64,000 nt of DNA from a bacterium (GTDB lineage Bacteria; Patescibacteriota; UBA1384; VFKW01): positions 26,221 through 90,220 of the forward strand of contig JAUSIS010000006.1 of NCBI GenBank assembly GCA_030647355.1, given 5' to 3'. Under the pieces are notes generated by a model. It was not told the origin of the DNA. It was given only the letters and a program-made list of their open reading frames with translations, and ran no database searches. Made by a program: the position numbers and the translations under genes. Positions within the stretch are counted from its first letter, which is position 1, and every line of letters starts with the position of its first letter. Below, piece by piece: positions 27,384 to 43,185 of this stretch.

Positions 27384-29909
27384 TTGTGGGATAGTTTAAT
27401 GGTAGATAGCAACATGTCCAATAATTCAGTGCATACTGCTGGTGTGCAGAATCATTTTATTGACACATTGGTCAACCTTGGTTTTGTCGACAGAAAAAAA
27501 TTGGATGGATTTGAATCGAAGAGTGAAGCTGAGATTGTCAAATTCATTGCTAATGGAATTTGTACCACAGAGCAGATTGCTCAAGCTTTCAGTACATATT
27601 ATGGTTTACCTTTTGTGCGGATTAAAGGACGCTCAGTTGATCCTAATGTACTGAAGCTAATTTCTAAAGAAGATGCTAAGACCTATCAGATTATTGCTTA
27701 TGGTCTAACAGATAAGAATCTTGAAATAGGTATAGGAAACCCGACTATTTTACAGGGCCAGCCCCCGGCTGCCCTGACTAAACTTGCTTCTGAGGGGTAT
27801 AGCACAACTCTATCAATCATTCCTGAAGACGAAATAGAATGGGCACTTAATTTATATTCTTCAGATAGTACTTTGCTACTAAATAGTGCAAGCAATATCT
27901 CCCAACCGAGTCAATCGGGTATGAGTGTTAGCCAGAGCGGTACGCAAGGAAGCGCGCCTTTTGTTGATTTAACCAAACTTACTATTCCAAAAGAAGTTTT
28001 GATGAAGTTTCCTAAAGAAGTGGCGGAAAAATATAACATGGTTGTATTTGACACAGAACCTCCAATTAATGTAACTAAAGCGTCTAAGAAGATTAAAGTA
28101 GCTCTATTGGGTCCTGAAGATTCTCAGGCAAGAGAGATTCTAGAGTTTATTAAGAGAAGAAATAATTTAGAGGTAGAGAAATATAAGTGTAATCAAGAGG
28201 GGTTGACTAAGTCATTGAGCGGTTATGAGCCAGTAATTCCTTCCCATCCGCTTGAGCAACAAGCTAAGCCTGAGCTGAAAAAGGATGCGGGTGATAAGGA
28301 AGAAGAAAAAAAAGACGAAATTGGTAAAAAAGATGAAGATAATAAACCCAAAATAAACCAAGATGAGCCTAAAGTAATTTCTGAAGTACAAGTGCATGAA
28401 GAGAATCTTTCAAGTGATAAAAAAATTGGCCAGATGCAAGAGATTGCATCTTCTGTACTTAAGCCAGAGGCGGCGCGGCTGAAAGAAGGATTGGCGACTC
28501 CTTATAGCCCGCCACCTAGCAGTTCTTCCGCTTTGTCAGATAACGAGAGTGATACTAAGGCAGAAGTAGTGCCCGAGGTTAAGTCTGAAGATATTGATAC
28601 TAAAGCTGGATTGCAATCTGGGGCGGACGTGGATAGCGGCAATATGGAAGAGAATAATTTGGATAAATTCTTGTCGCGTCCGGTGGATAAACTAGAAGAT
28701 TTAGAGTCGGTTATTAAGGCGGGTATGATACCGGAAATTGTAGCGGCGATGGTGAGTTTAGGTATTGTAATGGAGATTAGTGATATACATATTGAAGCAA
28801 CAACGGAAAATCTACGTTTGCGTTATAGAATTGACGGTATTTTGAAGGATATTATCAAGATGCCTTTGTCGCTTCATGCGCCGCTTGTGTCCAGAATAAA
28901 AATATTATCAAAACTAAAAATTGACGAGCAGCGCGTGCCTCAAGATGGACGGTTTAATGTGATTGCTAGGAAGCATGAGATCGATCTTCGTGTTTCTACT
29001 TTACCAACTGTACATGGAGAAAAAGTCGTCATGCGTATTTTGGATAAAAGCGTAGGTATTCTGACGCTAGAAGATATGGGTATTACCGGAGTGGGTTTTG
29101 ATGTTGTTGCTAAAAATATAAAGAAACCTTATGGAGTTATTTTGGCAACTGGTCCAACCGGGTCTGGAAAATCTACTACTCTCTATGCAATTTTACAGAG
29201 GATCTCAACTACCGCTGTCAATGTTATTACCCTCGAGGATCCCGTGGAGTATGAGATTTCCGGTATTAATCAAACCCAAGTTAAGCCTCAGATTGGTTTT
29301 ACTTTTGCCGAAGGACTGAGGGCGGTTCTAAGGCAGGATCCAAATATTATAATGGTGGGGGAGATTCGTGATTTAGAAACTGCAGCGATGGCGACGCACG
29401 CTGCTCTAACTGGTCATTTGGTGTTGTCTACATTACACACTAATGATTCGGCTGGCGCTTTGCCGCGTCTTATTAATATGGGGGTTGAGCCATTTTTAAT
29501 TACTTCTTCGGTCAATTGTATTATTGCCCAACGTTTAGTGCGAAAAGTGTGTCCTAAGTGTAAAGCAAAAGTAGAGTTGCCGGAGGCATTAATCGAGGAT
29601 ATATTGAAGGAAATTTCCAAAATTTCCGATACGAAAATCGCTGCTATGAAAAAAAATGATTTGATTTTTTATCATGGCTCGGGTTGCTCTGAATGTACCA
29701 ATGGCTATCATGGGAGAATAGGTATATACGAGGTCTTGGAGATGAACGAGAAGATTGAGGAACTGGCAGTGTCTAAGCAGCCGGCTAGCGCGATATTGGA
29801 GCAGGCGTGTAAAGATGGCATGGTTACTATGAAGCAGGATGGGATTTTGAAGGCATTGAAGGGTATTACGACTATGGATGAAGTATTGCGTGTTACATCT
29901 AGCGATTAG
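27384..29909 (+). CDS. pilB: Type IV pilus assembly ATPase PilB/GspE with a long charged low-complexity linker
   Basis: N-terminal GSPII_E_N-like domain. ~170-aa K/E/D/S-rich linker. Walker A GPTGSGKSTT, Asp box, Walker B, tetracysteine motif (CPKCK..CSEC). Confidence 0.85.
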   Translation: MWDSLMVDSNMSNNSVHTAGVQNHFIDTLVNLGFVDRKKLDGFESKSEAEIVKFIANGICTTEQIAQAFSTYYGLPFVRIKGRSVDPNVLKLISKEDAKTYQIIAYGLTDKNLEIGIGNPTILQGQPPAALTKLASEGYSTTLSIIPEDEIEWALNLYSSDSTLLLNSASNISQPSQSGMSVSQSGTQGSAPFVDLTKLTIPKEVLMKFPKEVAEKYNMVVFDTEPPINVTKASKKIKVALLGPEDSQAREILEFIKRRNNLEVEKYKCNQEGLTKSLSGYEPVIPSHPLEQQAKPELKKDAGDKEEEKKDEIGKKDEDNKPKINQDEPKVISEVQVHEENLSSDKKIGQMQEIASSVLKPEAARLKEGLATPYSPPPSSSSALSDNESDTKAEVVPEVKSEDIDTKAGLQSGADVDSGNMEENNLDKFLSRPVDKLEDLESVIKAGMIPEIVAAMVSLGIVMEISDIHIEATTENLRLRYRIDGILKDIIKMPLSLHAPLVSRIKILSKLKIDEQRVPQDGRFNVIARKHEIDLRVSTLPTVHGEKVVMRILDKSVGILTLEDMGITGVGFDVVAKNIKKPYGVILATGPTGSGKSTTLYAILQRISTTAVNVITLEDPVEYEISGINQTQVKPQIGFTFAEGLRAVLRQDPNIIMVGEIRDLETAAMATHAALTGHLVLSTLHTNDSAGALPRLINMGVEPFLITSSVNCIIAQRLVRKVCPKCKAKVELPEALIEDILKEISKISDTKIAAMKKNDLIFYHGSGCSECTNGYHGRIGIYEVLEMNEKIEELAVSKQPASAILEQACKDGMVTMKQDGILKALKGITTMDEVLRVTSSD

Positions 29910-30040: not shown

Positions 30041-31135
30041 TTGGCAGGACTGACCACAGGAGGGATTATGGCAGATACTTTAGCAGCGGAGATGAAGTCA
30101 CTTTTGGACCAAGCAATTGATAAGCGGGCGAGTGATTTGCATTTAACAGTAGGACTTCCACCTACTTTGCGTATTGACGGGCGCTTGATTGCGGTGGCCG
30201 ATAAAGGGGTTTTGAACGCCGAGGATTGCGAAAAACTGATTTTGAGCATTATGCTGCCGGAGCAGATTGAGAAATTAAGACAGAGAAAAGAGATAGATTT
30301 TTCTTTTGGCTACCAGCAGATGCGTTTTCGTACCAATGTCTTTTACCAAAAAGGGTATCTATCTGCCGCGCTTCGTTCGATCAGTCTAAAAATCAAAACT
30401 ATCGAAGAACTTGGCTTGCCTCCGATTTTGGAGAAATTTACTCTGCCAAGTCAGGGATTTGTGATTATTACCGGTCCGACTGGTCATGGAAAGTCCACAA
30501 CTCTGGCGGCATTAATTGAACATATCAATCAAACTCGCTCTGAACATATAATCACAATCGAAGACCCAATCGAGTATGTTTTTGAGCACAAGAAAAGTAT
30601 TGTCACTCAGAGGGAAATTAGCAGTGATAGTAATTCCTTTGCCCGAGCTTTGCGCAGCGCGCTGCGCCAAGATCCGGATGTTATTCTAGTGGGTGAAATG
30701 CGTGATCTGGAAACGATTGATGCGGCTTTAACGCTGGCTGAAACGGGGCATTTGGTCTTTACGACACTGCATACTAATTCAGCTTCACAGACTGCCGATC
30801 GTATTATTGATGTTTTCCCGCCACATCAGCAGCAACAGATCAGAATGCAGCTGGCTAATGTACTTTTAGGAGTGATATCGCAGAGATTATTGCCGAGGAT
30901 TTCCGGAGGCAGGGTGCTGGCGTGTGAGATTATGATGGCTAATTCGGCGGTGAGAAATACGATTAGAGAAGGAAAGACACATCAGTTGCCGAATGTTATT
31001 CAGACTAGTGCTTCCGAGGGTATGATCAGTTTGGATAAAGTTTTAGCTGAATTGGTTAGTAAAGGTGAGATTACTATAGATGATGCTTTGGCTTGGTCGC
31101 TTGATCCTAAGGCATTTAAAATGATGGTGTATTAA
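30041..31135 (+). CDS. pilT: Twitching-motility (pilus retraction) ATPase PilT
   Basis: Walker A GPTGHGKSTT, PilT-type AIRNLIRE-like region (AVRNTIREGKTHQL). ~350 aa, no tetracysteine motif. Confidence 0.85.
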   Translation: MAGLTTGGIMADTLAAEMKSLLDQAIDKRASDLHLTVGLPPTLRIDGRLIAVADKGVLNAEDCEKLILSIMLPEQIEKLRQRKEIDFSFGYQQMRFRTNVFYQKGYLSAALRSISLKIKTIEELGLPPILEKFTLPSQGFVIITGPTGHGKSTTLAALIEHINQTRSEHIITIEDPIEYVFEHKKSIVTQREISSDSNSFARALRSALRQDPDVILVGEMRDLETIDAALTLAETGHLVFTTLHTNSASQTADRIIDVFPPHQQQQIRMQLANVLLGVISQRLLPRISGGRVLACEIMMANSAVRNTIREGKTHQLPNVIQTSASEGMISLDKVLAELVSKGEITIDDALAWSLDPKAFKMMVY

Positions 31136-31304: not shown

Positions 31305-32378
31305 GTGGCGCGGAGTTTAGTACAACAATATCTTCCATTTTTGACCAATGTCTCGATACGAGATAAGGCGTTTGTTGCCAGGCAGTTGGCGACAATGCTG
31401 GAGTCGGGAATTCCGCTGGCGCAATCCGTTTCTATTATTGGTGTGCAGGCGAGCAATGATATTATGCAAGAGACAATGGCGGCTATTGTTCATGATCTTG
31501 AGCATGGTTTAAACTTTTCGACTGCTATAGGTAAACACCCCAGACTTTTTAGTCGAGTTTTTGTCTCTGCAGTTAGGGCGGGTGAGGCGTCGGGGCGATT
31601 AGACAGTGTGCTGGGGGAATTAGCTTCTCAGCTTGAGAAGGATACTGATGCGACATCGAAGATAAAAGGCGCTCTGATGTATCCGGCATTTATCTTCGGT
31701 GCAATGATTGTCACGGTTGTGATTATGATGGTTAAGATCGTACCGCAGCTGGAGTCGGTATTTATGGAAAATAACGCTCAATTACCATTTACCACGACAG
31801 TAATTATGTCACTTAGCCGATCAATGGTGGCGTATTGGTGGATATATCTTATCGCCGTTAGCTTTACTGTATGGGGACTGGGTTTTTATCTGAAAACAGA
31901 TTCAGGGCGGGAACATTGGAATACCTTAAAAATCAGGATGCCTATAATCGGGACGATTAATAAAGGAAATTATATGGCGCGGTTTGCCAGAACTCTGTCT
32001 ATGCTTATTGCGTCAGGTGTGCCGATTATTGAGTCGCTGAAAATAGTGGCAGATTCGATTGATAACGATATTTATAGAGAGGGTTTACTCCGGGTAGCTT
32101 ATGACGTTTCGCGGGGTGTTCCGATATCAGTGCCACTACAGAGGGATAAAAATTTTCCAATGATAGTTTCTCAGATGGCAATTGTGGGCGAGCAGACTGG
32201 TAAAATGGATGAAGTGTTTTCCAAATTGGCACATTATTACGAAGGTCAGACAGAGGATAAGATTAAAGGTATGGCTTCTCTTCTGGAGCCGGCTGTTTTG
32301 GTAGTCATAGGTCTAGGTGCAGCATTTGTTGTTTTTGCCATCATTATGCCGCTTTACAATCTGACCAGTGTTATGTAA
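31305..32378 (+). CDS. pilC: Type IV pilus inner-membrane platform protein PilC/GspF
   Basis: Two GspF-type repeats, each with cytoplasmic helices and TM segments. Confidence 0.8.
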   Translation: MARSLVQQYLPFLTNVSIRDKAFVARQLATMLESGIPLAQSVSIIGVQASNDIMQETMAAIVHDLEHGLNFSTAIGKHPRLFSRVFVSAVRAGEASGRLDSVLGELASQLEKDTDATSKIKGALMYPAFIFGAMIVTVVIMMVKIVPQLESVFMENNAQLPFTTTVIMSLSRSMVAYWWIYLIAVSFTVWGLGFYLKTDSGREHWNTLKIRMPIIGTINKGNYMARFARTLSMLIASGVPIIESLKIVADSIDNDIYREGLLRVAYDVSRGVPISVPLQRDKNFPMIVSQMAIVGEQTGKMDEVFSKLAHYYEGQTEDKIKGMASLLEPAVLVVIGLGAAFVVFAIIMPLYNLTSVM

Positions 32379-32856: not shown

Positions 32857-33172
32857 GTGGCAAGAGATATAGGGCAAAGGCCTTGTTCTCTGGTTGCTTA
32901 AAACCCCTCACCCTTTAAGCAAAGGATGAGGGATAATAAGGAGGTTCCCAGCTCTTTCTGAGCTTGTCAATATCTGTGTGTTGTTGGGACATTATGGCGA
33001 TATTAGCAGATAAGGATGATGAGTTGAGAAAGGGCTGGGTAGGTCGGTAACCGACAACGGTATTTTCATTCGTTTATTTGCAGCCAGAAATGGGAAAATG
33101 TCAAATGACAAATTTCCAATGTCAAATAATTAACCCGCCGTCGCTGAAGCTATGGCGGGCGAAGGAGAAAAA

Positions 33173-33673
33173 ATGAGAAAAAAAGGTTTTACACTTATCG
33201 AACTTTTGGTGGTTATTGCCATCATTGGTATCTTAGCGGCAACAGTCTTGATCGGTATGCGATCGGCTCGTTCCAAAGCCAGAGATACGCAGAGGAAAAA
33301 CAATGTCAGATCGGTAATAAATATGCTAGAGTTGTATTATGATGACAATGTATCTGCGGGTTATCCAGCTACGACCTTAGCTGCCACTTGCTATAACGTG
33401 AATGGTTTGTCTGATGGTGATGCCAGCGGAGGCATTTCAGTCTTAGTGTCTGCGTTAAACGCTACAGCTGCATATGATATATCTGATATTACACAGAGCG
33501 ATGATCAGGCTGCAAGATATGGTTTTACTACCACTCTTACCGGTGCAACACCAGATCGCGTGAACAACGGTGCTTGTGCTGCAATGCTTCCAGCACAAGC
33601 ACAAGGGCCAGTCTATGTTGGTCAAAACATGGAGGCCCAGGGTAATGCATTTGAGGCACAGACGGCTCAATAG
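33173..33673 (+). CDS. pilA: Type IV major pilin (PilA-like) with class III signal peptide
   Basis: MRKKG|FTLIELLVVIAIIGILAA: prepilin peptidase cleavage motif with Glu+5. Cys pair near the C-terminus. Confidence 0.85.
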   Translation: MRKKGFTLIELLVVIAIIGILAATVLIGMRSARSKARDTQRKNNVRSVINMLELYYDDNVSAGYPATTLAATCYNVNGLSDGDASGGISVLVSALNATAAYDISDITQSDDQAARYGFTTTLTGATPDRVNNGACAAMLPAQAQGPVYVGQNMEAQGNAFEAQTAQ

Positions 33674-33720
33674 TCGGTATTTAGAGGGGAGGAGGTCCTC
33701 CTCCTTTCGAGTGTGTTAAA

Positions 33721-33752
33721 AAGAGTCCCGATAGTACATCGGGACTCTTTGG
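33721..33752 (+). terminator. Intrinsic terminator downstream of the major pilin gene
   Basis: AGAGTCCCGATAGTACATCGGGACTCTTTGGG: 10-bp GC-rich stem plus a T tract. Confidence 0.7.
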
Positions 33753-33769
33753 GTGTAGGGGAGGGGATT

Positions 33770-34110
33770 GCTTTGTCGCTTCGCTCCTCGCAATGACAGA
33801 GAACTGCTGTTCGCAGTGACACGGAAAGTGGAGAAGATTGCCGCGCTTCGCTCGCAATGACAGGAAAGTAAGATTGCCGCGCTACGCTCGCAATGACAGA
33901 AGGGAGATTGCTTCGGACGACACTCGCAATGACAAAGGAAGCTTCTCGCAATGACAAAGGAGAGATTGCTTCGGACGACGCTCGCAATGACACGGAAAGT
34001 GGAGAAGATTGCCGCGCTGCGCTCGTAATGACATAAGCACACTCGCGATGTTCGTCAGAAAGATTGCTTCGTCGCTACGCTCCTCGCAATGACACGGAAA
34101 AAACGCTGGT
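33770..34110. repeat. Cluster of ~7 hairpin repeat units (GATTGC-N12-17-GCAATGACA), the last one a long perfect palindrome
   Basis: Repeated GATTGCCGCGCT(T/A)CGCTCGCAATGACA and GATTGCTTCGGACGAC(A/G)CTCGCAATGACA units separated by 6-12 nt. 34067-34130 forms a ~28-bp inverted repeat. Confidence 0.85.
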
Positions 34111-34446: not shown

Positions 34447-34605
34447 AAAGAAGATTGCCGCGCTTCGCTCGCAATGACAGAGGGGAGATTGCTTCGGACG
34501 ACACTCGCAATGACAAAGGAAGCTTCTCGCAATGACAAAGGAGAGATTGCTTCGGACGACACTCGCAATGACAGAAATAGTGCTTGCGATGACGAAGGAA
34601 AGGTA
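34447..34605. repeat. Second cluster of GATTGC..GCAATGACA hairpin repeats (4-5 units)
   Basis: Same units as 33770-34110, starting immediately after the GIY-YIG stop codon. Confidence 0.85.
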
Positions 34606-34664
34606 TTATTTGGAAATTTTGTTAATTCTAGGATATAATAGATTTAAGTAGTAAGGAGCGGATT

Positions 34665-35465
34665 ATGACAATTTTGATAGTGTTTATCTTTGGGTTAATG
34701 GTAGGATCTTTTTTAAATGTGGTGATACTGCGCATGGATGAGCTGGAGACTATTGTAAATACCCGATCTCACTGCCCGAAGTGTAAAAAAGATTTGTCTT
34801 GGTATGATCTGGTGCCTCTCTTGAGTTTTTTGTTGCTTCGGACGCGGTGCCGATATTGTAAGGAAAAAATTTCTTTGCAATATCCCTTGGTTGAACTGGG
34901 GACGGCTCTGGGCTTTGCGGCAGTATATCAATTTGTAGTGAACCAAGGGATTGGATTCGAGTGGCAGGTAATCAGTTTGATATTTTATCTTCTGATAGTA
35001 TCTTTTTTGGTGGTATTGTTTGTTTATGATCTTAGGAAATATTTGGTACCGGATGAGATCGTTTGGCCGGCAATTATCTTAACGGTTATTTTTCAAGTAT
35101 TGGCAATTCAATTCATACCGGATTACAGATTGAACTGGATGGATTTGCTATTGGGAGGATTAATCGGCGCTGGAGTGCCGGCATTACTTTCTATTCCGTC
35201 TAAAGGGAAATGGATGGGGTATGGCGACATCGCGATCGGAGCGCTTTTAGGGCTGGTGCTCGGTTATCCGCTAGCGATAGTAGGGCTTTTTATGGCGTTT
35301 TGTGCTGGCGGCTTGGTCGGAGTTGTGTTGATATTGGCAGGGTATAAGAAATTGACTTCGGCGGTGCCTTTCGGTCCTTTTTTAACCGCAGGAACTTTTG
35401 CTGCCTTGCTTTATGGGGAAAGAATACTTAATTGGTATCTGGGTTTTTTCGGACTTCGTTATTAG
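34665..35465 (+). CDS. pilD: Prepilin peptidase (A24 family) PilD
   Basis: N-terminal CxxC..CxxC zinc-binding region (CPKCKK..CRYCKE). Polytopic membrane protein with catalytic-Asp context (YDLRKYLVPDE, GYGDIAIGALLG). Confidence 0.85.
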   Translation: MTILIVFIFGLMVGSFLNVVILRMDELETIVNTRSHCPKCKKDLSWYDLVPLLSFLLLRTRCRYCKEKISLQYPLVELGTALGFAAVYQFVVNQGIGFEWQVISLIFYLLIVSFLVVLFVYDLRKYLVPDEIVWPAIILTVIFQVLAIQFIPDYRLNWMDLLLGGLIGAGVPALLSIPSKGKWMGYGDIAIGALLGLVLGYPLAIVGLFMAFCAGGLVGVVLILAGYKKLTSAVPFGPFLTAGTFAALLYGERILNWYLGFFGLRY

Positions 35466-35590
35466 AGGTTACTTCTCGACTTTGCTCAAAGAATAATGCC
35501 AGGCAGTAAGAAATAAACTGGGACAGGGAAAGATTGCCACGCTACGCTCGCAATGACACAGAAATAGTACTCGCAATGACAAGGAGGGGA
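35466..35590. repeat. Composite intergenic repeat: ACTTCTCGAC.. motif + GCAGTAAGAAATAAACTG motif + two GATTGC..GCAATGACA hairpin units
   Basis: Each module recurs elsewhere in the window (31140-31300, 49424-49460, 33770-34110). Confidence 0.7.
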
Positions 35591-35643
35591 TATACAAGCT
35601 TTGGTGGGTTATGTTATGATAGAGAAAAGTGAGCGGAGGGGAA

Positions 35644-36204
35644 GTGAGAGCTCGAAAAAGTAAATTTGGTTTTACCTTGATTGAATTGATGATTACGATC
35701 TCGATTATGGGTATTTTGACAGTCGTGATGATTCCAGCGATTAGGAGTTTTGATAGGCGAAATAAGGTTACATCGGCGGCGGAGCAACTAAAGTCAGCGA
35801 TTCTGGAGGCGAGAAATTATTCAATGTCGCCAAGATTTAGCGATACAAATATTGACCGTTATAGTGTTATGATGGATTTGAGTCAAACTCCGGTTGAGTA
35901 TGAAGTCGGCTATTTTGAAAAGACGACTAATACTTGGCACAGTATTGCACCAAGAAAATTACCTAAAGGTGTTACTGTTGATCAGCGCTATCCTGACGAT
36001 GCTAATCCAAATGATATGGAGATTGGGTTTATGGTTCCTGCTGCTTCGGTCAAGTTTGAGAATTTATTTGATTACACGAACCAAACAACTTGGCCGGCGG
36101 CTAGTGGTATTGGTACGGTGAAGTTATGTGGCGAAAGTGCATCTTGCGGGGATAGTAAAACAGTTAAGATTAACAGTTATACTGGCTTAGTATTGATTGA
36201 ATGA
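35644..36204 (+). CDS. Type IV minor pilin / pseudopilin (FimT/GspH-like)
   Basis: Class III signal peptide VRARKSK|FGFTLIELMITISIMGIL. GTG start at 35644 behind the RBS GGAGGGG (the ORF opens at 35629). Confidence 0.75.
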   Translation: MRARKSKFGFTLIELMITISIMGILTVVMIPAIRSFDRRNKVTSAAEQLKSAILEARNYSMSPRFSDTNIDRYSVMMDLSQTPVEYEVGYFEKTTNTWHSIAPRKLPKGVTVDQRYPDDANPNDMEIGFMVPAASVKFENLFDYTNQTTWPAASGIGTVKLCGESASCGDSKTVKINSYTGLVLIE

Positions 36205-36224
36205 TTGTAATTTAGGGAGAAGGT

Positions 36225-36755
36225 ATGTTAATTGCAAAACATAAGATAGGAAATCACAGAAAAGGGTTTGGCATATTAGAGGTAATGATTGCCAGTATGA
36301 TTTTAGTTACAGTAGTCGGAGCGGTGGTGGCGATGGGGAGTGCCAGTGTGAGGGGTGGGTTGACGGCTTCCGATAAGACAACTGCCTACAATTTGGCGCA
36401 AGAGTGTTTGGAGAAGGCGCGGTCCGTGAGAGATGGCAATTGGGTGGATCAGAACATCCCTACGGCTACAGAGTGGAATACCAATCTAACCACAGCAAAT
36501 TTATCAATGTTAAGCGAATGTAAAACTACCTCGGTGGGTACACCGCAAGTTGAGTATACGAGAGGGGTAGTCGTAACAAATGTGCCGTGGTTTGATCCCA
36601 CTTCGGGAGATCCGCCTCAATATGGTGTTCCACTTCAGGATATCCCCGAAGATATGGTACAACAAATTACTGTAACAGTGAGTTGGTTGGGTGAGAATAG
36701 CAATCAGAGTTTGACGGGCAGCACTTATTTAACCGACTGGAAGATGATCAATTAG
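36225..36755 (+). CDS. Type IV minor pilin PilV-like
   Basis: HRKG|FGILEVMIASMIL is the classical PilV-type N-terminus. ~150-aa globular C-terminal domain. Confidence 0.7.
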   Translation: MLIAKHKIGNHRKGFGILEVMIASMILVTVVGAVVAMGSASVRGGLTASDKTTAYNLAQECLEKARSVRDGNWVDQNIPTATEWNTNLTTANLSMLSECKTTSVGTPQVEYTRGVVVTNVPWFDPTSGDPPQYGVPLQDIPEDMVQQITVTVSWLGENSNQSLTGSTYLTDWKMIN

Positions 36756-36791
36756 GTGACAGGTAACAGGGAACAGGAGACAGGAGAGTAA

Positions 36792-37922
36792 ATGGGTGGG
36801 AATTATAAAGAATTGAGTGTTTGGCAAAAGAGCGTGGAGCTGGTGAATGATGTTTATTTACTGACACGTAAATTTCCTAGTGAAGATAAATTTGGTATTG
36901 CACAGCAGATGGAGAGGGCGTCAGTGTCTATCCCTTCGAATATTGCCGAAGGACATCGTAGACAGCATAAAAATGAGTATGTACAGTTTTTACATATAGC
37001 TTTAGCTTCTGCTTCGGAGTTGGAAACTCAGCTAGAAATATGTAGGAGGTTTGACCATTTGAAGAGTTATAAATTTGAAGCGATTGGTGACCGACTTGAG
37101 GAGATAATAAAAATGTTGCATGGCTTAATAAAAGCAGTTAAATCTACTCATACCTGTGATCTGAAACCTCATGCCTCCAGGGGGTATACCTTGGTGGAGA
37201 TACTGGTTGCGTCCACGATATTTGTCAGCGTGGTTGGAATGGGAATTGCTACGTATTCTTCTGCCAGCGGTTTTCAGTCCAAATCGGCGGTTATTCGAGA
37301 GACCAACCAGGCGGCTCGCTATGCGATGGATACGATTGTCAGAGATATAAGGTTAGCTGATAGTTCGGTTGCTTACACAAAGACCATAGGCCCGGATGAT
37401 TATGTATATACTTTTAAGGGGTTTGCTTTTGAGCAAGCTGGCGGAGGTTTAGATACTACCAATAATTCACTTACACAATATACAGGGATAAAGGTTTATC
37501 GGAAAGGAAGTGGTGATTGCAAGGATTTTGTTCAGGAAGTTTATTATTGGATACAATCAAATACGATATCTCAGCAAATCTCCTATTATAATCATACAAA
37601 CGCGAGTGATAAGGATAGTCCAGCTGATTATAATAGTCCTGTTTCCCTTTTATCTGGTTGCACGGTCTCTTCGGCAGCCATACTGTCCGATAGAGTACAG
37701 CTTAGGGTTGATCCAGTGACCAGTGTTACTCAGGCTTTTTTTCAGGGTCAGTCGGCGTTTGATGTGGAAAAGAATAGCGCTCCGTTTTCGATTGCAAATT
37801 TAGCGCCATACCTCAAAGCATCAATGGATGTAGTGCCGATTCATAGTGCCCTTAGTCCTGGAGAAGAAAGTAGGACCATTCATCTTGAGACGACGGTGAC
37901 ACCGCGATTAGTATCATTTTAA
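36792..37922 (+). CDS. Chimeric ORF: N-terminal four-helix-bundle (TIGR02436 / '23S rRNA intervening-sequence protein') domain fused in frame to a PilW-like minor pilin
   Basis: aa 1-115 (LSVWQKSVELVNDVYLLTRKFPSEDKFGIAQQMERASVSIPSNIAEG..ELETQL) match the four-helix-bundle family. From aa ~125, RG|YTLVEILVASTIFVSVVG is a prepilin N-terminus. An internal Met (MLHGLIKAV.., nt ~37110) could be an alternative pilin start. Confidence 0.6.
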   Translation: MGGNYKELSVWQKSVELVNDVYLLTRKFPSEDKFGIAQQMERASVSIPSNIAEGHRRQHKNEYVQFLHIALASASELETQLEICRRFDHLKSYKFEAIGDRLEEIIKMLHGLIKAVKSTHTCDLKPHASRGYTLVEILVASTIFVSVVGMGIATYSSASGFQSKSAVIRETNQAARYAMDTIVRDIRLADSSVAYTKTIGPDDYVYTFKGFAFEQAGGGLDTTNNSLTQYTGIKVYRKGSGDCKDFVQEVYYWIQSNTISQQISYYNHTNASDKDSPADYNSPVSLLSGCTVSSAAILSDRVQLRVDPVTSVTQAFFQGQSAFDVEKNSAPFSIANLAPYLKASMDVVPIHSALSPGEESRTIHLETTVTPRLVSF

Positions 37923-37924
37923 GT

Positions 37925-38827
37925 TTGGAGCAGACAATGATGTTATTTTTGAAAAGAAAAACCGGTAGTGCGATACTTATTGTGATGCTTTTGATTACAG
38001 TTTTGTCGTCAGTGGCTTTGACTGTTGGTTATTTGGCGATGGCAGAAGTGATGATGGAAACCAATTCCCAAGACGGGATGGTTGCCTACTATGCGGCGGA
38101 AGCGGGGATTGAAGACGGGTTACTCCGGTTTAGATATGATAATAATGTCCAGGTAGGGAGTTTTATCACAGGAGCGGAAAGAGTAGAACGAGTAGATATA
38201 GACGAGACAGATGGGAGTGTGGCTCGGCAACCTATTGTTAATCCGGCTAATTCTCCCGGAGATTCTCTTAGGCAGACATATGACCTGAGGATTAAGTATA
38301 AATCAATTAATGAGGAAGCAATATCTCCGGATATGGACCATTTTGTAAATACTGAGTTAAATAATGATGAGACAGAAAAATTGCTCAAAAAAGACGAATC
38401 ATTGAATGTGTTGGGTTTTGATGTGAATTCCCGACTATATATTAAATTCGTTCGCGATGCCGATGATACTGACCCTATTTGTTCAATAGACCCAACTAAA
38501 TGTTTTATTCAGATTAGAGGGACGAATATAGGGACGGAATTTATTCCTTATTCACAAAGCGACCAATCGGCAACTTCTTATGTTATCAACGCGGGAAGCT
38601 CTGTACTGATTAAATCTTGGGGTATGGATGTCAGGTATGGAATTGCAGCCGAGAGAATCAGCGATTCAAGCGTCATTTCTTTGGATGAAGGTATAACGAC
38701 CATAGAGGCGACTGGGTATTATGGAAGCGCTAAGAGGCGGCTTCAGGCGACTATTGATAGAAAAACAGGGAAATTGCTGGAGATATTTGACTTTACGCTG
38801 AATAGCCAGACAGGGAATATTCAATAG
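37925..38827 (+). CDS. Type IV pilus minor pilin PilX-like
   Basis: N-terminal hydrophobic segment (GSAILIVMLLITVLSSVALTVGYLAMAE) followed by AEAG, as in PilX N-terminal domains. Position after the PilW-like gene. Confidence 0.55.
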   Translation: MEQTMMLFLKRKTGSAILIVMLLITVLSSVALTVGYLAMAEVMMETNSQDGMVAYYAAEAGIEDGLLRFRYDNNVQVGSFITGAERVERVDIDETDGSVARQPIVNPANSPGDSLRQTYDLRIKYKSINEEAISPDMDHFVNTELNNDETEKLLKKDESLNVLGFDVNSRLYIKFVRDADDTDPICSIDPTKCFIQIRGTNIGTEFIPYSQSDQSATSYVINAGSSVLIKSWGMDVRYGIAAERISDSSVISLDEGITTIEATGYYGSAKRRLQATIDRKTGKLLEIFDFTLNSQTGNIQ

Positions 38828-38919
38828 TATCAGGAATATCAAGTATTGGGTGCGTTTCTTCCAGTCATCGCGAGGAATGTAATGACGCGGCGATCTGATG
38901 AGAGGATGATGTATGTAGT

Positions 38920-39110
38920 AGATTGCTTCGTCGCTACGCTCCTCGCAATGACACAGGAAAGTAAGATTGCCGCGCTACGCTCGCAATGACGAAGGAAGCT
39001 CCTCGCAATGACACAGGAAAGTAAGATTGCCGCGCTACGCTCGCAATGACAGGAAAGTAAGATTGCCACGCTTCGCTCGCAATGACACAGGAATGAGCTC
39101 GCAACGACAA
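38920..39110. repeat. Tandem array of ~36-nt GATTGC..GCAATGACA(GGAAAGTAA) hairpin repeats (4-5 units)
   Basis: GATTGCCGCGCTACGCTCGCAATGACAGGAAAGTAA repeated head-to-tail with minor variants. Same family as 33770-34605 and 35530-35590. Confidence 0.85.
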
Positions 39111-39572: not shown

Positions 39573-40460
39573 ATGAATAAAGTGATTGTTAAAATAAGAG
39601 GGAGAAGCCTGTTTGCCGGTTTTACTTTGATTGAATTACTAGTGGTGATCTCAATAATAGGAATACTGGCATCTGTAGTGTTGGTGGGGCTTAGGAGCGC
39701 TCGAGGGAAAGCATTTGACGTGAGGAGGAAGGCAGGCGTGTTGAGTATTAGTAATGCAGTACAGGCATATTCGTTGGATAATAATGAAACCGTGCCGGCT
39801 TATTGTAATTGGACTAGTCTCAAATATTATGAATTAATGGGTTCAACGGGTCTTTTGTGCGCTAGTACAACCTTGATTAATGCCGGATATTTTACGGATG
39901 CTTCGGGTTCTTCACCTATTCCTAAAGATCCGGTGTTTACCGGAATTGCTAAACCTTATTGGTATGTCAGTGATCTGGAAAATTATCTTCTGAATGCTAA
40001 ATTATCTACAGGTAAGTATTTTAGTGTAAAGGATGGTTCTGCAACTACAGTGGTGGCTACTTCATCGATTGCGGGCGATACTTCACCACCGACGATTTCA
40101 TGTGGCGGTGGTGATTGTGTGCCTTATGTACAGTTTAGCGCAACACAGGTTGGATTCTTGCCGGGACCAGAAATTTGGCGGATTACCTTGAAGACGGCAG
40201 CAACTGACAATGTTTGGCTGGCTGGCCATAAATTAAAATTTTATGCGGAAATGCCTTCTTATATTGATAATACACCGTTGAATCCACCAGGAGTAAATGG
40301 TGTATTTACATCGGCAAATAGTTATGATTACACTATCCCGGCGCTTCCGGTCCGCCCTCAGAAGATTGATGTATTTATTTACCCAGTTGATGCTAACGGA
40401 AATGGTAATAGTGACTATAATGTGGGAGCGCAGTTTACAGTACCATCTCCTCGTCTATAA
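39573..40460 (+). CDS. Large type IV pilin paralogue 1 (~295 aa)
   Basis: Class III signal SLFAG|FTLIELLVVISIIGILASVVLVG. Variable Ser/Thr/Gly-rich body. C-terminal motif shared with paralogues (..GNGNSDYNVGAQFTVPSP). Confidence 0.8.
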   Translation: MNKVIVKIRGRSLFAGFTLIELLVVISIIGILASVVLVGLRSARGKAFDVRRKAGVLSISNAVQAYSLDNNETVPAYCNWTSLKYYELMGSTGLLCASTTLINAGYFTDASGSSPIPKDPVFTGIAKPYWYVSDLENYLLNAKLSTGKYFSVKDGSATTVVATSSIAGDTSPPTISCGGGDCVPYVQFSATQVGFLPGPEIWRITLKTAATDNVWLAGHKLKFYAEMPSYIDNTPLNPPGVNGVFTSANSYDYTIPALPVRPQKIDVFIYPVDANGNGNSDYNVGAQFTVPSPRL

Positions 40461-40479
40461 TATAAATTGGGAGATCGCT

Positions 40480-41328
40480 TTGAGATTGAGTTTTCTGGTT
40501 ACTAGGGCAAAAGATAAGAAAAAGCTGATTGGTTTTACGCTGATTGAGATATTGGTAGTTATCTCGCTGATTGGGTTACTCGCGGCGATGATTTTGGTGG
40601 GGGTGAGGGGTTTTAGAGATAGAGCTCACGATGTACAAATAAGAGCGGATGTTAAGGGTATTGCAACATCGTTTGAATCGTATGGGATGGATAACGGTGA
40701 CAAATACCCAGAGAGTGTTAATAGCTGGGGTATTAAGTGTTTGGCTGAGCGGTTAGGTAGTGATACTTCGGTTGGCGGCGATTCGATATTGGTTCCTAGA
40801 TTCCTTAGTTCTATACCCACTTATGTACGTAATGGGAGCCTGCGCTATTATATGTATGCTAGTTGCGGGGATGAATATATGGTAGGGGCTACTATTTCGG
40901 GACCTGGTCGCCGCTTTGTGGCACGATCGGAAGGATTGGGGGGAACGACGGATCGCGATACAGACTTATTTTCACCGACTTTTCCCGGTGTTCTTCAGGC
41001 AAGGGCAGAGCGGGGTACTTCTACTCCTACGACCAATTGGACGTTATCGTTTAATCCTGCGACAGACGTTGGTGATGGGATTGCTTATTATGCGATTGAG
41101 CTTACCGATTATATTGGTAATGACCATGGAACTACAAAAATCTACAGATTAGTGGGGAAACCTTCTGATCCAATAACTAACCCAGTTCAGGTGCCTTTTG
41201 TTCTGACAGATCCATCCCCGTCCATGGATGACTTAGGAGGTCTTAAAGAATTCGGGGTGAAAATGTATGCTGTAGACAAAGCGCTAAATGCTTCCGTTGT
41301 TTGGGAAAGCGATATATTTGAGATATAG
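40480..41328 (+). CDS. Large type IV pilin paralogue 2
   Basis: KKKLIG|FTLIEILVVISLIGLLAAMILVG. The ORF opens at 40297 by read-through overlap with the previous gene; the true start is probably TTG/ATG near 40480-40500 behind GGGAG. C-terminal VQVPFVLTDPSP motif. Confidence 0.7.
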   Translation: MRLSFLVTRAKDKKKLIGFTLIEILVVISLIGLLAAMILVGVRGFRDRAHDVQIRADVKGIATSFESYGMDNGDKYPESVNSWGIKCLAERLGSDTSVGGDSILVPRFLSSIPTYVRNGSLRYYMYASCGDEYMVGATISGPGRRFVARSEGLGGTTDRDTDLFSPTFPGVLQARAERGTSTPTTNWTLSFNPATDVGDGIAYYAIELTDYIGNDHGTTKIYRLVGKPSDPITNPVQVPFVLTDPSPSMDDLGGLKEFGVKMYAVDKALNASVVWESDIFEI

Positions 41329-41378
41329 GTTTATATAAATAGGAAAAATATATGGTGTGTTTATTTAGGGACAATAAG

Positions 41379-42245
41379 ATGGATAGTAAAATTAGTTGTA
41401 TTAAAAGAAGGAAGAAATTAATTGGTTTTACATTAATAGAGCTGTTAGTGGTGATTTCGATTATAGGGCTCTTGGCGGCGATTGTTTTAATTGGAGTAAA
41501 AGCGGTTCGATCTAAGGCACAGGATGTTCAGACGAAGGCAGATGTAGCCTCAATATCACGCAGCCTGGAGGCCTATGCAGCAGAAAATGACGAGAACTAC
41601 CCAATTAGCAGAGGTTTGGCAACCGGATACTGCGGGACAGAAAAGTTGGGCGGAGATACTCCGTCCGGCGATGCGGAGGCGATGTTAAAAAGTAGCATTA
41701 CTACCATGCCAAGACCAGCTACTTCTTACGCGGTGGGAAACTATTATCTTTATCAGGGTTGCGGACAGACTTATACGCTAAGAGGAATGTTGCGTGATAG
41801 CTCCCAATATGTTTCAAAGGGTGATGGTACTACTTCTACAACAAGTGCTTCTGCCACGATTGACACCACTGCTCCAAACATCTCTATGCTGAGCAGTATT
41901 TATCCAGCTCGCAGGATGAATCCCAGGGGCGAAACAAGCAGTTGGGTAGTGGATATGTCGCCGCAAGTTTCCAATCCTACCGACATAGCTCAATACATAA
42001 TTACCGTATCCGGAGGCACCGGCAAAACAGCTATTGTGACAGGGACACCTTACTCGACTGTTAATTGGCCCTCTGAATGTCAGGATTGCGGCGGGGTAGT
42101 GCAGATACCTTTTACGACTTGGCGGGATTTTACAGAATCGATACCGGTAGACGGGTTATACTGCTTCAGCTACATTAAGGTGCAGGCGTTTGACGAATGG
42201 GGCAATTATAGTTTTAAATCCGCTAGCCCCTATTGCGAGATTTGA
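41379..42245 (+). CDS. Large type IV pilin paralogue 3
   Basis: RRKKLIG|FTLIELLVVISIIGLLAAIVLIG. C-terminal CQDCGGVVQIPFTTW motif. Confidence 0.8.
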   Translation: MDSKISCIKRRKKLIGFTLIELLVVISIIGLLAAIVLIGVKAVRSKAQDVQTKADVASISRSLEAYAAENDENYPISRGLATGYCGTEKLGGDTPSGDAEAMLKSSITTMPRPATSYAVGNYYLYQGCGQTYTLRGMLRDSSQYVSKGDGTTSTTSASATIDTTAPNISMLSSIYPARRMNPRGETSSWVVDMSPQVSNPTDIAQYIITVSGGTGKTAIVTGTPYSTVNWPSECQDCGGVVQIPFTTWRDFTESIPVDGLYCFSYIKVQAFDEWGNYSFKSASPYCEI

Positions 42246-42303
42246 GTCTGGATATGGTTATTTTTTAATTTTCTTTACCTTAGTTAGTATATTGGAGTTT
42301 CTA

Positions 42304-43185
42304 ATGTTATATTCAGAGACTCGAACGAGAGCACGAATTGCCGGTTTTACACTGATTGAGTTGTTGGTGGTGATTTCGATTATTGGGTTACTGGCGTCGG
42401 TGGTTTTGATAGGGATGAGATCGGTGCGCACTAAGTCATTTGATGTGCAGAAAAGAATGGATATTGCCTCTTTTTCCAAGATACTGGAAGGGTATGCAAT
42501 GGCGAATAGCGAAAAGTATCCTATCAGTCACAATGATGAGGGCGACGGGGGAGATTGTGCTATAGAAAAGCTTGGTCAGTTTCCGTTGCTAGGTGCCACC
42601 CCAATCATTGGTGCCGACATGACCTCGTTTCCAACCGTGAAGTACGAACCCGATCCAGAGTGGAAATATTATAAGTATGTCAGCTGCGGTGAAGGTTATA
42701 CCTTATGGTCAAAACTACTGGCAACTGGCAAACAATACGGTGTTAGGGTGACTAGCGCCGGTTCTCCTCCTACTTTCTTTACTAGGACAATTACTTCGGC
42801 ACCGGATATATCGGGCATTACGGTTCGTTTTGCGCGAAGGGAGTCATCGAATATAGCCACGAGTCATTGGTTGTTGGACATGAGTAATGCAAACATCGCT
42901 GGTATTGATCACTATACAATACACATAAGCGACGAGCCCGTAGTTTCGAGATGGGGCAGTGGTTATGGACCGATGACGACAGTCACGCCGTGTAACGGCG
43001 GTTGTGTTGGGAATGTCCAAATTCCGTTTGAGACATGGGATGTTTGGAATGGGGGTCCTATTCCACCGATACAATCGATTCCCGCTTCGCCTCCTTCATT
43101 ATATATTCAGTTTGTTAAGATATGGGGATTTGATGCATACGGCAATATGGCAGAGAAAACTTTCCCTGCCGGTGCGGGTGAGTGA
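42304..43185 (+). CDS. Large type IV pilin paralogue 4
   Basis: RARIAG|FTLIELLVVISIIGLLASVVLIG. C-terminal CNGGCVGNVQIPFETW motif. The ORF opens at 42190; the Met at 42304 is preferred. Confidence 0.8.
   Translation: MLYSETRTRARIAGFTLIELLVVISIIGLLASVVLIGMRSVRTKSFDVQKRMDIASFSKILEGYAMANSEKYPISHNDEGDGGDCAIEKLGQFPLLGATPIIGADMTSFPTVKYEPDPEWKYYKYVSCGEGYTLWSKLLATGKQYGVRVTSAGSPPTFFTRTITSAPDISGITVRFARRESSNIATSHWLLDMSNANIAGIDHYTIHISDEPVVSRWGSGYGPMTTVTPCNGGCVGNVQIPFETWDVWNGGPIPPIQSIPASPPSLYIQFVKIWGFDAYGNMAEKTFPAGAGE

Follow-up and report, generated by a model that had tools for sequence, protein, structure and literature searches.

An intervening-sequence-type four-helix-bundle cassette in frame with a PilW-like minor pilin gene in a patescibacterial type IV pilus operon

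The locus described here raises the question of how a minor pilin gene of a type IV pilus operon can come to lie, in one and the same reading frame, behind a complete domain of another protein family, and what this would mean for the pilin. It is found in a stretch of 64,000 nucleotides from a metagenome-assembled genome (MAG) of a member of the Patescibacteriota (contig JAUSIS010000006.1, positions 26,221 to 90,220 of the forward strand; this whole stretch is referred to as the window), in which an open reading frame (ORF) of 376 codons, 36792..37922 on the + strand, runs from ATG to TAA without an internal stop. A first-pass annotation, made from the letters of the window, had described it as a four-helix-bundle (4HB) domain of the 23S rRNA intervening sequence (IVS) protein type followed by a PilW-like prepilin. 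The explanation that we consider probable is that a selfish 4HB cassette of the IVS type overwrote the start region of pilW, and that the insertion was buffered as the leader of a pilin is cleaved off.

That both modules share one stop-free frame was borne out by the searches. The N-terminal part matches PF05635 over residues 6-111 with 129.1 bits (Pfam cut-off 33.8, model positions 1-106 of 106) and TIGR02436 over residues 10-117 with 125.7 bits (cut-off 24, model positions 1-109 of 109), and no second 4HB copy is present in the 64-kb window. At 376 residues, the ORF does not have the size of a small free-standing 4HB protein (about 110-150 aa). A separate assembly of public reads (Logan, run SRR13727527, locus L004) is 100% identical to the window over 35529-38946 (3,418 bp), so that the missing stop is not an artefact of one assembler. 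The full-length AlphaFold2 (AF2) model places helices at residues 6-26, 33-45, 56-89 and 95-121, with a predicted local distance difference test (pLDDT) below 50 and no alignment depth in this part; being of low confidence overall (pLDDT 58.7), it served for counting helices only. The domain is followed by a 14-residue tail, KSTHTCDLKPHASR, and then by G131/YTLVEILVASTIFVSVVGMG, where the slash marks the predicted cleavage site. The class III signal, SRG/YTLVEILVASTIFVSVVGMGIA, is canonical by eye, with cleavage between G131 and Y132, a glutamate at +5 and a hydrophobic helix thereafter. When the pilin part was modelled alone, AF2 gave a pLDDT of 87.8 and a predicted template modelling score of 0.81 for a 54-residue N-terminal helix with a beta-rich head, which in the PDB comes closest to the Pseudomonas GspJ, XcpW (5bw0_E, prob 0.99, E 0.03). 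The sequence models for GspJ/PilW remain far under their cut-offs (NF006453, 16.3 bits against 295; TIGR01711, 13.1 bits against 64.85), and the assignment as a PilW/GspJ-like minor pilin is supported by fold and gene order, not by these models. The fused ORF is indeed the third gene of a minor-pilin set resembling H-I-J-K, near the genes for PilD, PilB, PilT and PilC. In the public record its product is MDO8513163.1, "MAG: four helix bundle protein [bacterium]", and judged by this name alone the operon would seem to have no GspJ/PilW-like core minor pilin.

The DNA in front of the pilin part has the anatomy of a compact cassette of 423 bp (36754-37176), which fills the entire spacer between the pilV-like gene and pilW. 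Five tandem heptamers make up its 5' arm (Table 1), and the first of them overlaps the TAG stop codon of the pilV-like gene (36753-36755), while the last two supply the AGGAG (36782-36786) that forms a Shine-Dalgarno (SD) sequence 5 nt ahead of ATG 36792 (SD score 5). Behind the 4HB ORF lies a 3' arm of degenerate inverse heptamers, read in frame as HTCDLKPHAS. Heptamer-phased AGG occurs on the + strand of the window in the 5' arm only (0.01 matches expected by chance), and heptamer-phased CCT only in the 3' arm on the + strand and in the 5' arm on the - strand (0.02 expected). A 12-nt inverted repeat with 83% complementarity pairs the 3' arm with 36754-36765. Since the 3' arm ends two codons ahead of G131, the SD sequence of pilW itself, its start codon and the first codons of its leader are missing; what is left of the original leader is the codon string that encodes R130, G131 and Y132.

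The nearest relatives of the pilin show what such a gene looks like when no cassette is present. When 5.8 billion proteins were searched with the pilin part as query, the protein itself and five orthologues of 230-257 aa were returned; a profile search contributed one more, and an exhaustive search of 1.84 billion representatives with a hidden Markov model (HMM) gave 2,177 relatives. The orthologues (P0002-P0006 and P0127) are 33-51% identical to the pilin part of the window. None of the eight nearest full-length homologues (these six, P0131 and P0132) has a 4HB domain; they are 223-293 aa long, with leaders of 4-19 aa such as MKNRG/YTLVEIL, MRNRG/YTLVEIL and MSFKKIKKQAG/FTLIEIL, and several begin at a TTG behind GGAGG. 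This was the comparison that the first-pass annotation had proposed for the N-terminal module. Six loci (L001-L003 and L108-L110) keep the gene order without a cassette, the pilV-pilW junction being a spacer of 8-104 bp or an overlap of 4 bp. In L002 and L003, pilW starts from TTG behind GGAGG and continues with AGG GGA TAT, and the same R-G-Y codon string is also present directly after the cassette of the window. Two further comparisons were set aside: a scan of metagenome contigs with a PilW alignment gave 21 weak, uninformative loci, swamped by the generic pilin N-terminus, and a mixed alignment of 4HB and pilin homologues was misaligned and discarded.

The 4HB family, for its part, is found elsewhere in a setting that resembles the one in the window. 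The best 120 of 6,398 4HB homologues are without exception free-standing, come from many phyla and measure 116-151 aa, with 44-55% identity to the 4HB domain of the window (the search did not list the query's own record, P0001, although it is present, as the word-based candidate step can miss identical sequences). For 80 homologous 4HB loci from GTDB genomes (L005-L084), of which the flanks were analysed in 61, a common plan was seen, with short tandem repeats upstream and their reverse complement downstream, the repeat sequence itself being specific to each locus. The median score for inverted complementarity is 30.5 within these 61 loci against 14 across loci, and 32 of 62 loci, with the window included, lie above the 99th percentile of the cross-locus control. 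A tandem array, in most cases of period 7, was detected upstream in 21/61 loci and downstream in 24/61, compared with 7/519 control segments. The 4HB genes occupy gaps of 415-540 bp (interquartile range) between their neighbours, and the free-standing ORFs reach a stop 4-43 codons past the domain in all 61 loci. In such genes the C-terminal tail and the stop codon are often encoded by the 3' array of 7-9-nt repeats. A literature search found no paper describing this plan of inverted repeat arrays as a general feature of 4HB genes outside rRNA. A general association of 4HB cassettes with pilins was considered and ruled out, as only one of the 80 loci abuts a pilin gene. In this locus (L017, 1455-1915; Paceibacterota MAG JBAZLC010000008.1), the heptamer arms of the 4HB cassette are AGGTTTT/AAAACCT, and 22 nt separate its end from ATGGGGTTCACCCTTATCGAG, a prepilin-like ORF that has a leader of two residues (MG/FTLIE) and no visible SD sequence.

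Taken in this context, the cassette of the window, consisting of a 5' tandem array, a PF05635 ORF of about 120 codons and a 3' inverse array, would have replaced the pilV-pilW spacer, its 5' arm beginning inside the pilV stop codon. As there is no in-frame stop in the 3' arm, the 4HB ORF runs into pilW. Two routes to the pilin would then be left, which are not mutually exclusive. By the first, ribosomes would read through from ATG 36792 and produce a precursor of 376 aa, the "leader" of which would be 131 aa long and consist of a folded cytoplasmic 4HB domain. Ribosomes starting at this codon meet no stop before 37920, and the long precursor is therefore necessarily made if the 4HB part is translated. 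By the second, initiation would occur internally, at ATG 37113 behind GAGGAG, giving a prepilin with a leader of 24 aa. The first-pass annotation had pointed to this methionine, and we find that it is in frame (M108), as well as that, together with the adjacent TTG 37116, it is the last canonical in-frame start before the cleavage site, which sets the leader at no less than 23-24 aa. In the window, an SD score of 5 or more is found for 44% of likely gene starts against 8% of internal in-frame ATGs, and only 1 of 69 homologous 4HB genes has an SD-like sequence before the equivalent, invariant methionine of helix 4. By these counts, ATG 37113 is a candidate alternative start. By either route, the adjacent prepilin peptidase would cut after G131 at the cytoplasmic face and release the same mature minor pilin, and with an identical product both the insertion and the fusion can be tolerated. 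According to a review (PMC10191384), prepilin leaders vary in length, and they lie in the cytoplasm, as does the active site of the peptidase. As far as topology goes, insertion and cleavage could hence proceed normally with a cytoplasmic domain at the N-terminus. The peptidase would have to accept so long a leader, and the short-leader trait of type IV pilins applies neither to the 131 aa counted from ATG 36792 nor to the 24 aa counted from ATG 37113. The fusion is probably harmless, since the front end of the pilin is cut off anyway, and the 4HB part would be selfish cargo rather than a component of the pilus.

Several observations weigh against this explanation. No close relative of the window's genome was found, so that it is not possible to retrace the insertion event or to date it; of the first-pass proposal of a recent in-frame insertion, the insertion is supported by the orthologues, the six loci without cassette and the flanking arrays, while the word "recent" has to be dropped. 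The arms are poorly complementary overall (local score 15, the level of chance), and the RNA fold of the cassette has a z of -0.17 relative to shuffled sequences, although its ends do pair in the minimum-energy fold. With arms of such low complementarity, the 3' boundary rests on heptamer phasing and on the point where homology to the orthologues resumes. The prepilin HMMs fall marginally under their cut-offs over residues 128-151 (N_methyl, 19.9 against 21.2 bits; TIGR02532, 16.2 against 16.3). The SD-like GAGGAG encodes a Glu-Glu pair common in that helix and could be fortuitous. Cleavage behind a folded domain of 117 aa, possibly an oligomerising one, is a supposition here, and a search of open-access papers found neither a 4HB-pilin fusion nor peptidase cleavage behind a long or folded N-terminal fusion.

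How far a cassette-derived leader can be accommodated is illustrated by a second cassette type at the same junction. All proteins listed by the exhaustive HMM search have the start of the pilin motif at residue 37 or earlier, with three exceptions, which are the protein of the window (residue 125), P0218 (residue 171) and P0152 (residue 52). P0218, encoded in locus L085, is a second in-frame fusion of a 4HB domain to a PilW-like pilin, situated in the slot between a pilV-like and a PilX-like gene, after which comes RNase H; its fused leader is up to about 150 aa long from the likely 4HB start, and 26 aa from an internal TTG. For P0152 (L086), the 4HB protein (118 aa) is encoded by a gene of its own just ahead of the pilin gene; the two share a frame but are set apart by three stops, and the pilin carries an N-terminal extension of 55 aa encoded by the long 3' array of the cassette (leader of 15 aa if the start is GTG). 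In P0170 (L112-L114, from three samples), the 4HB stop overlaps the pilin ATG (ATGTTTAG) and a 30-aa leader is encoded by the arm. P0177 (L111) has no 4HB ORF; a 12-nt arm motif of L085 and L086 recurs in its leader of 33 aa (p about 0.01-0.03), which suggests that this leader is a cassette scar. The second type is thus present in four states (fused, separate, overlapping, and with the ORF missing), and it is always the 3' arm that encodes the pilin leader, which measures at least 15-33 aa and, in the L085 fusion, up to about 150 aa. The pilins of L085, L086, L111 and L112-L114 have without exception retained the G at -1 and the E at +5. The premise that prepilin peptidase requires a leader below 30 aa, from which the anomaly had been argued, is weakened by these loci, as in several lineages and samples cassette-encoded leaders persist that are at least 15 aa long when counted from GTG, or 30-55 aa when the nearest ATG is taken as the start. 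A 4HB-pilin fusion is nevertheless not a conserved architecture: rather than being shared by many relatives, it has one more representative, in a distant lineage and with another cassette type. We also consider, as less likely, a wider version of the explanation, in which IVS-type cassettes repeatedly hit the pilV-pilW junction, their 3' arms being co-opted as leader and the peptidase acting as a polyprotein processor where the frame is open. A cut behind the folded domain of 117 aa (window) or about 130 aa (L085) would then yield two products, an Avd-like 4HB protein and a minor pilin. If true, the leader would exceed every known class III leader by far, and the cassette would be the first selfish one with its expression coupled to, and buffered by, pilin maturation.

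A related sub-question is whether the insertions at this junction go back to a single event, in the ancestor of the window and of the L085, L086 and L112 lineages, followed by many losses. The junction is identical and the boundaries similarly tight, the pilV stop marking the start of the 5' arm in the window as in L085 and L086, and the pilin parts are themselves very diverged (22-29%). We nonetheless hold a common origin to be unlikely. The 4HB proteins of L085, L086 and L112 are 55-62% identical to one another and 28-36% to that of the window, which has 50-55% identity to 4HBs of unrelated phyla, and the arms are built of the 7-mer AGGNNAC in the window and of the 9-mer AACGTTCCA in the second type; from this low identity and the unlike repeats, the insertion in the window looks independent. 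The loci examined for the nearest PilW relatives (L001-L003, L108 and L109) are all without a cassette, and the 104-bp spacer of L001, with its GTAAGC-like repeats, was considered as a remnant of the window's cassette and rejected, being dissimilar to its arms (similarity to either arm only at chance level). The presence of two cassette types at one junction may reflect a preferred landing site, or chance.

It could also be that the insertion killed pilW, leaving a recent pseudogene that looks intact but has no usable start, and a pilus that lacks this minor pilin or substitutes another for it. The loss of the native SD and start codon speaks for this, as does the lack of any canonical start within 24 codons of the cleavage site; a start at CTG 37161, with a leader of 8 aa, was examined and found unlikely (SD score 0). 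We regard this outcome as quite unlikely, considering that all 245 of the 245 mature codons are open with every family-invariant residue kept, and that the AF2 model of the pilin part is confident. The SD-like internal start, the good SD of the 4HB start with no possible termination ahead of 37920, and the persistence of comparable arrangements over diverged lineages and samples point in the same direction.

Alternatively, the fusion could be a selected bifunctional protein that contributes to DNA uptake or to the function of the pilus; the 4HB part would serve as a permanent cytoplasmic domain of a membrane-anchored, pilin-like protein, or be delivered stoichiometrically with the minor pilin. 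Three observations can be read in its favour, namely the second fusion at the corresponding place of the operon in a distant lineage (P0218/L085), the occupation of one junction by two different cassette types, and the cassette of L017 that ends shortly before another prepilin-like gene. Weighed against the 4HB-free state of all eight nearest full-length homologues, the separate (L086, three stops), overlapping (L112-L114) or absent (L111) ORF of the second cassette type in the other lineage, and the one pilin neighbour among 80 4HB loci, they leave a bifunctional protein distinctly improbable in our view. The cleavage motif is moreover intact, hence the parts would be expected to separate. 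For a 14-codon arm, chance would leave the junction open and in frame in roughly 1 of 6 cases (an estimate, from 1/3 for the frame and about 0.5 for no stop), and the stop-free state is most simply put down to the way in which the arm adjoins the leader or was trimmed to it.

A sequence or assembly error hiding a real stop or frameshift between a 4HB gene of about 122 aa and pilW is very improbable, for although the source is a MAG and a shift of one base in the 3' arm would bring in a TGA (present in the other two frames at 37157 and 37162) and give a 4HB of canonical length, the separate assembly is identical, the HMM alignment keeps the frame to residues 117-118 and so confines any error to about 12 nt without a homopolymer, pilW would even with a stop still have no nearby start, and a second natural fusion exists (L085).

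Table 1 Features of the fused ORF, its cassette, the second cassette type and the surrounding pilus operon. Positions are those of the window unless a locus is named; the slash marks the cleavage site.
Feature	Position	Strand	Evidence or remarks
5' arm, five tandem heptamers AGGTGAC AGGTAAC AGGGAAC AGGAGAC AGGAGAG	36754..36788	+	Tandem Repeats Finder, period 7, 4.9 copies
4HB coding part, residues 1-118	36792..37145	+	PF05635, TIGR02436
Candidate internal pilin start: GAGGAG 37098-37103, 9-nt spacer, ATG 37113-37115 (M108)	37098..37115	+	SD score 5
3' arm, degenerate inverse heptamers CATACCT GTGATCT GAAACCT CATGCCT (NNNNCCT, four units)	37149..37176	+	heptamer phasing
Leftover of original leader and cleavage site, AGG GGG / TAT = R130 G131 / Y132	37179..37187	+	orthologue alignment (AGG GGA TAT)
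Mature GspJ/PilW-like minor pilin (Y132-F376) and stop codon	37185..37922	+	orthologues, AF2, PDB match
Second cassette type, arms of 9-mer AACGTTCCA	L085 5053-5520; L086 40-745; L112 1-510 (also L113, L114); L111 432-600		
PilB-type ATPase	27384-29909		
PilT-type ATPase	30041-31135		
PilC	31305-32378		
Major pilin	33152-33673		
GIY-YIG gene, 118 aa	34089-34445		Pfam E 2.6e-15
PilD-type prepilin peptidase	34665..35465	+	PF06750 E 1.1e-33, PF01478 E 2e-11 (A24 N-terminal domain and peptidase A24)
First minor pilin, GspH/FimU-like	35629..36204	+	N_methyl 30.3 bits (above cut-off); gspH TIGR01708 E 2.5e-7 (below)
Second minor pilin, PilV/GspI-like	36225..36755	+	TIGR02523 PilV E 1.9e-5, below cut-off
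Fourth minor pilin, PilX/GspK-like	37925..38827	+	PilX_N E 3.5e-4, GspK E 0.016, both below cut-off; synteny
RNase H	starts 39139		
Four more pilin-like genes	39573-43185		about 260-300 aa each, N_methyl motif
Ile-tRNA synthetase	starts 43253		

In the operon around the fused ORF, the gaps among the four minor-pilin genes are 20, 36 and 2 bp, the PilX/GspK-like gene beginning 2 nt past the fused ORF. The PilD-type peptidase, whose gene is 1.3 kb upstream and has its counterpart in matching position in the syntenic loci L001-L003, L085 and L108, is the enzyme expected to cut after G131. The C-terminus of the pilV-like protein, YLTDWKMIN directly before the stop, is conserved with L001-L003, L085, L086 and L111, and its coding sequence contains a 32-nt imperfect tandem duplication (36598-36658; 1.9 copies, 80% matches). 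Scans of the window with Rfam gave tRNAs only and no rRNA, and scans for promoters and terminators gave nothing above chance, with no terminator-like site within the cassette. In L002 and L003, RNase H is directly followed by Ile-tRNA synthetase, without the four pilin-like genes of the window. Two of these four were over-extended upstream by the mechanical ORF calls, so that the motif lies at residues 79 and 48; a long "leader" in an ORF list is therefore often just an unused upstream start. An AAATGTC heptamer is repeated 4.6 times in tandem at 33096-33127, 25 nt upstream of the major pilin gene, and may be either an element of regulation or an isolated arm of a cassette.

The GIY-YIG gene and the repeats that had been noticed near the fusion are real. 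Arrays of direct repeats of about 36 nt (unit roughly GATTGCCGCGCTWCGCTCGCAATGACAGGAAAGTAA) flank the gene at 33667-34042 and 34450-34640, and occur again past the PilX-like gene at 38839-39110; the independent assembly L004 breaks at these arrays, and L002 and L003 have neither them nor the GIY-YIG gene. The connection that had been drawn between the fusion and these elements did not hold up, as it amounts to the co-occurrence of separate insertions.

Beyond this operon, the findings indicate that the rRNA-IVS protein family travels as a compact cassette with inverted arms of short repeats, which colonises spacers inside protein-coding operons, and that an arm of such a cassette can turn into part of a neighbouring gene. 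The fusion of the window and the L085/L086/L112/L111 series together represent a natural experiment on the length and structure of the prepilin leader.

The known elements closest to the cassette are the IVSs of rRNA, as found in Coxiella burnetii (S23p) and Leptospira. The 23S IVS of Coxiella measures 428 nt; its S23p ORF is preceded by tandem heptamers, and the inverted repeats at its termini are cut by RNase III (PMC4990558). ORFs of the type 23S_rRNA_IVP have been reported in rRNA insertions of bacteria of the Candidate Phyla Radiation (10.1101/2024.02.27.582315). The element of the window, at 423 bp, has the same ORF family (PF05635), tandem heptamers just before the start of the ORF and the inverse repeat after it, and it is built like an rRNA IVS, yet it is not one, as there is no rRNA there. 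It lies between two protein-coding pilus genes, its ORF has a good SD whereas that of Coxiella has a poor one, and its 3' arm is translated within the next gene. Its terminal stem is degenerate: an IVS-like stem providing an RNase III site was sought in the cassette RNA, the energy being no better than that of shuffled sequences and the arms pairing at the level of chance, and excision is not predicted. With the free-standing 4HB genes of Patescibacteria, Bacteroidota and others, the window shares the level of sequence identity given above, a gap of about 430 bp and short-repeat flanks, but while the 120 best homologues and the 61 loci end at most 43 codons past the domain, the ORFs of the window and of L085 run on.

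Avd (bAvd, PF22296/NF033474) is a distant homologue within the same family relationship of four-helix bundles (PF22296 E 3.6e-7). Identity with the Avd of a diversity-generating retroelement was rejected on the scores (NF033474, 38.6 bits with a cut-off of 80; PF22296, 31.1 bits with a cut-off of 40), and no reverse transcriptase was present among the long ORFs scanned from about 9 kb before to about 6 kb after, which are pilus genes, the GIY-YIG gene and RNase H.

On the pilin side, known long leaders are roughly 15-30 aa and unstructured. The type IV pilins that have them, type IVb pilins and the major pilins of Streptococcus sanguinis, resemble the case of the window in having a leader beyond the usual 5-10 aa that is removed by a PilD-type enzyme on the cytoplasmic side (PMC10191384), and differ from it in that the read-through product of the window would carry a folded domain of 117 aa. 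GspJ/XcpW and the PilW minor (pseudo)pilins share with it the G at -1, the E at +5, the long N-terminal helix, the beta-rich head and the position as third gene, the difference being that their leaders have about 5-20 aa, whereas that of the window has no fewer than 24 aa, counted from the last canonical start, and as many as 131 aa. The fusion does not point to a new molecular system, and is in this comparison a local variant of known elements.

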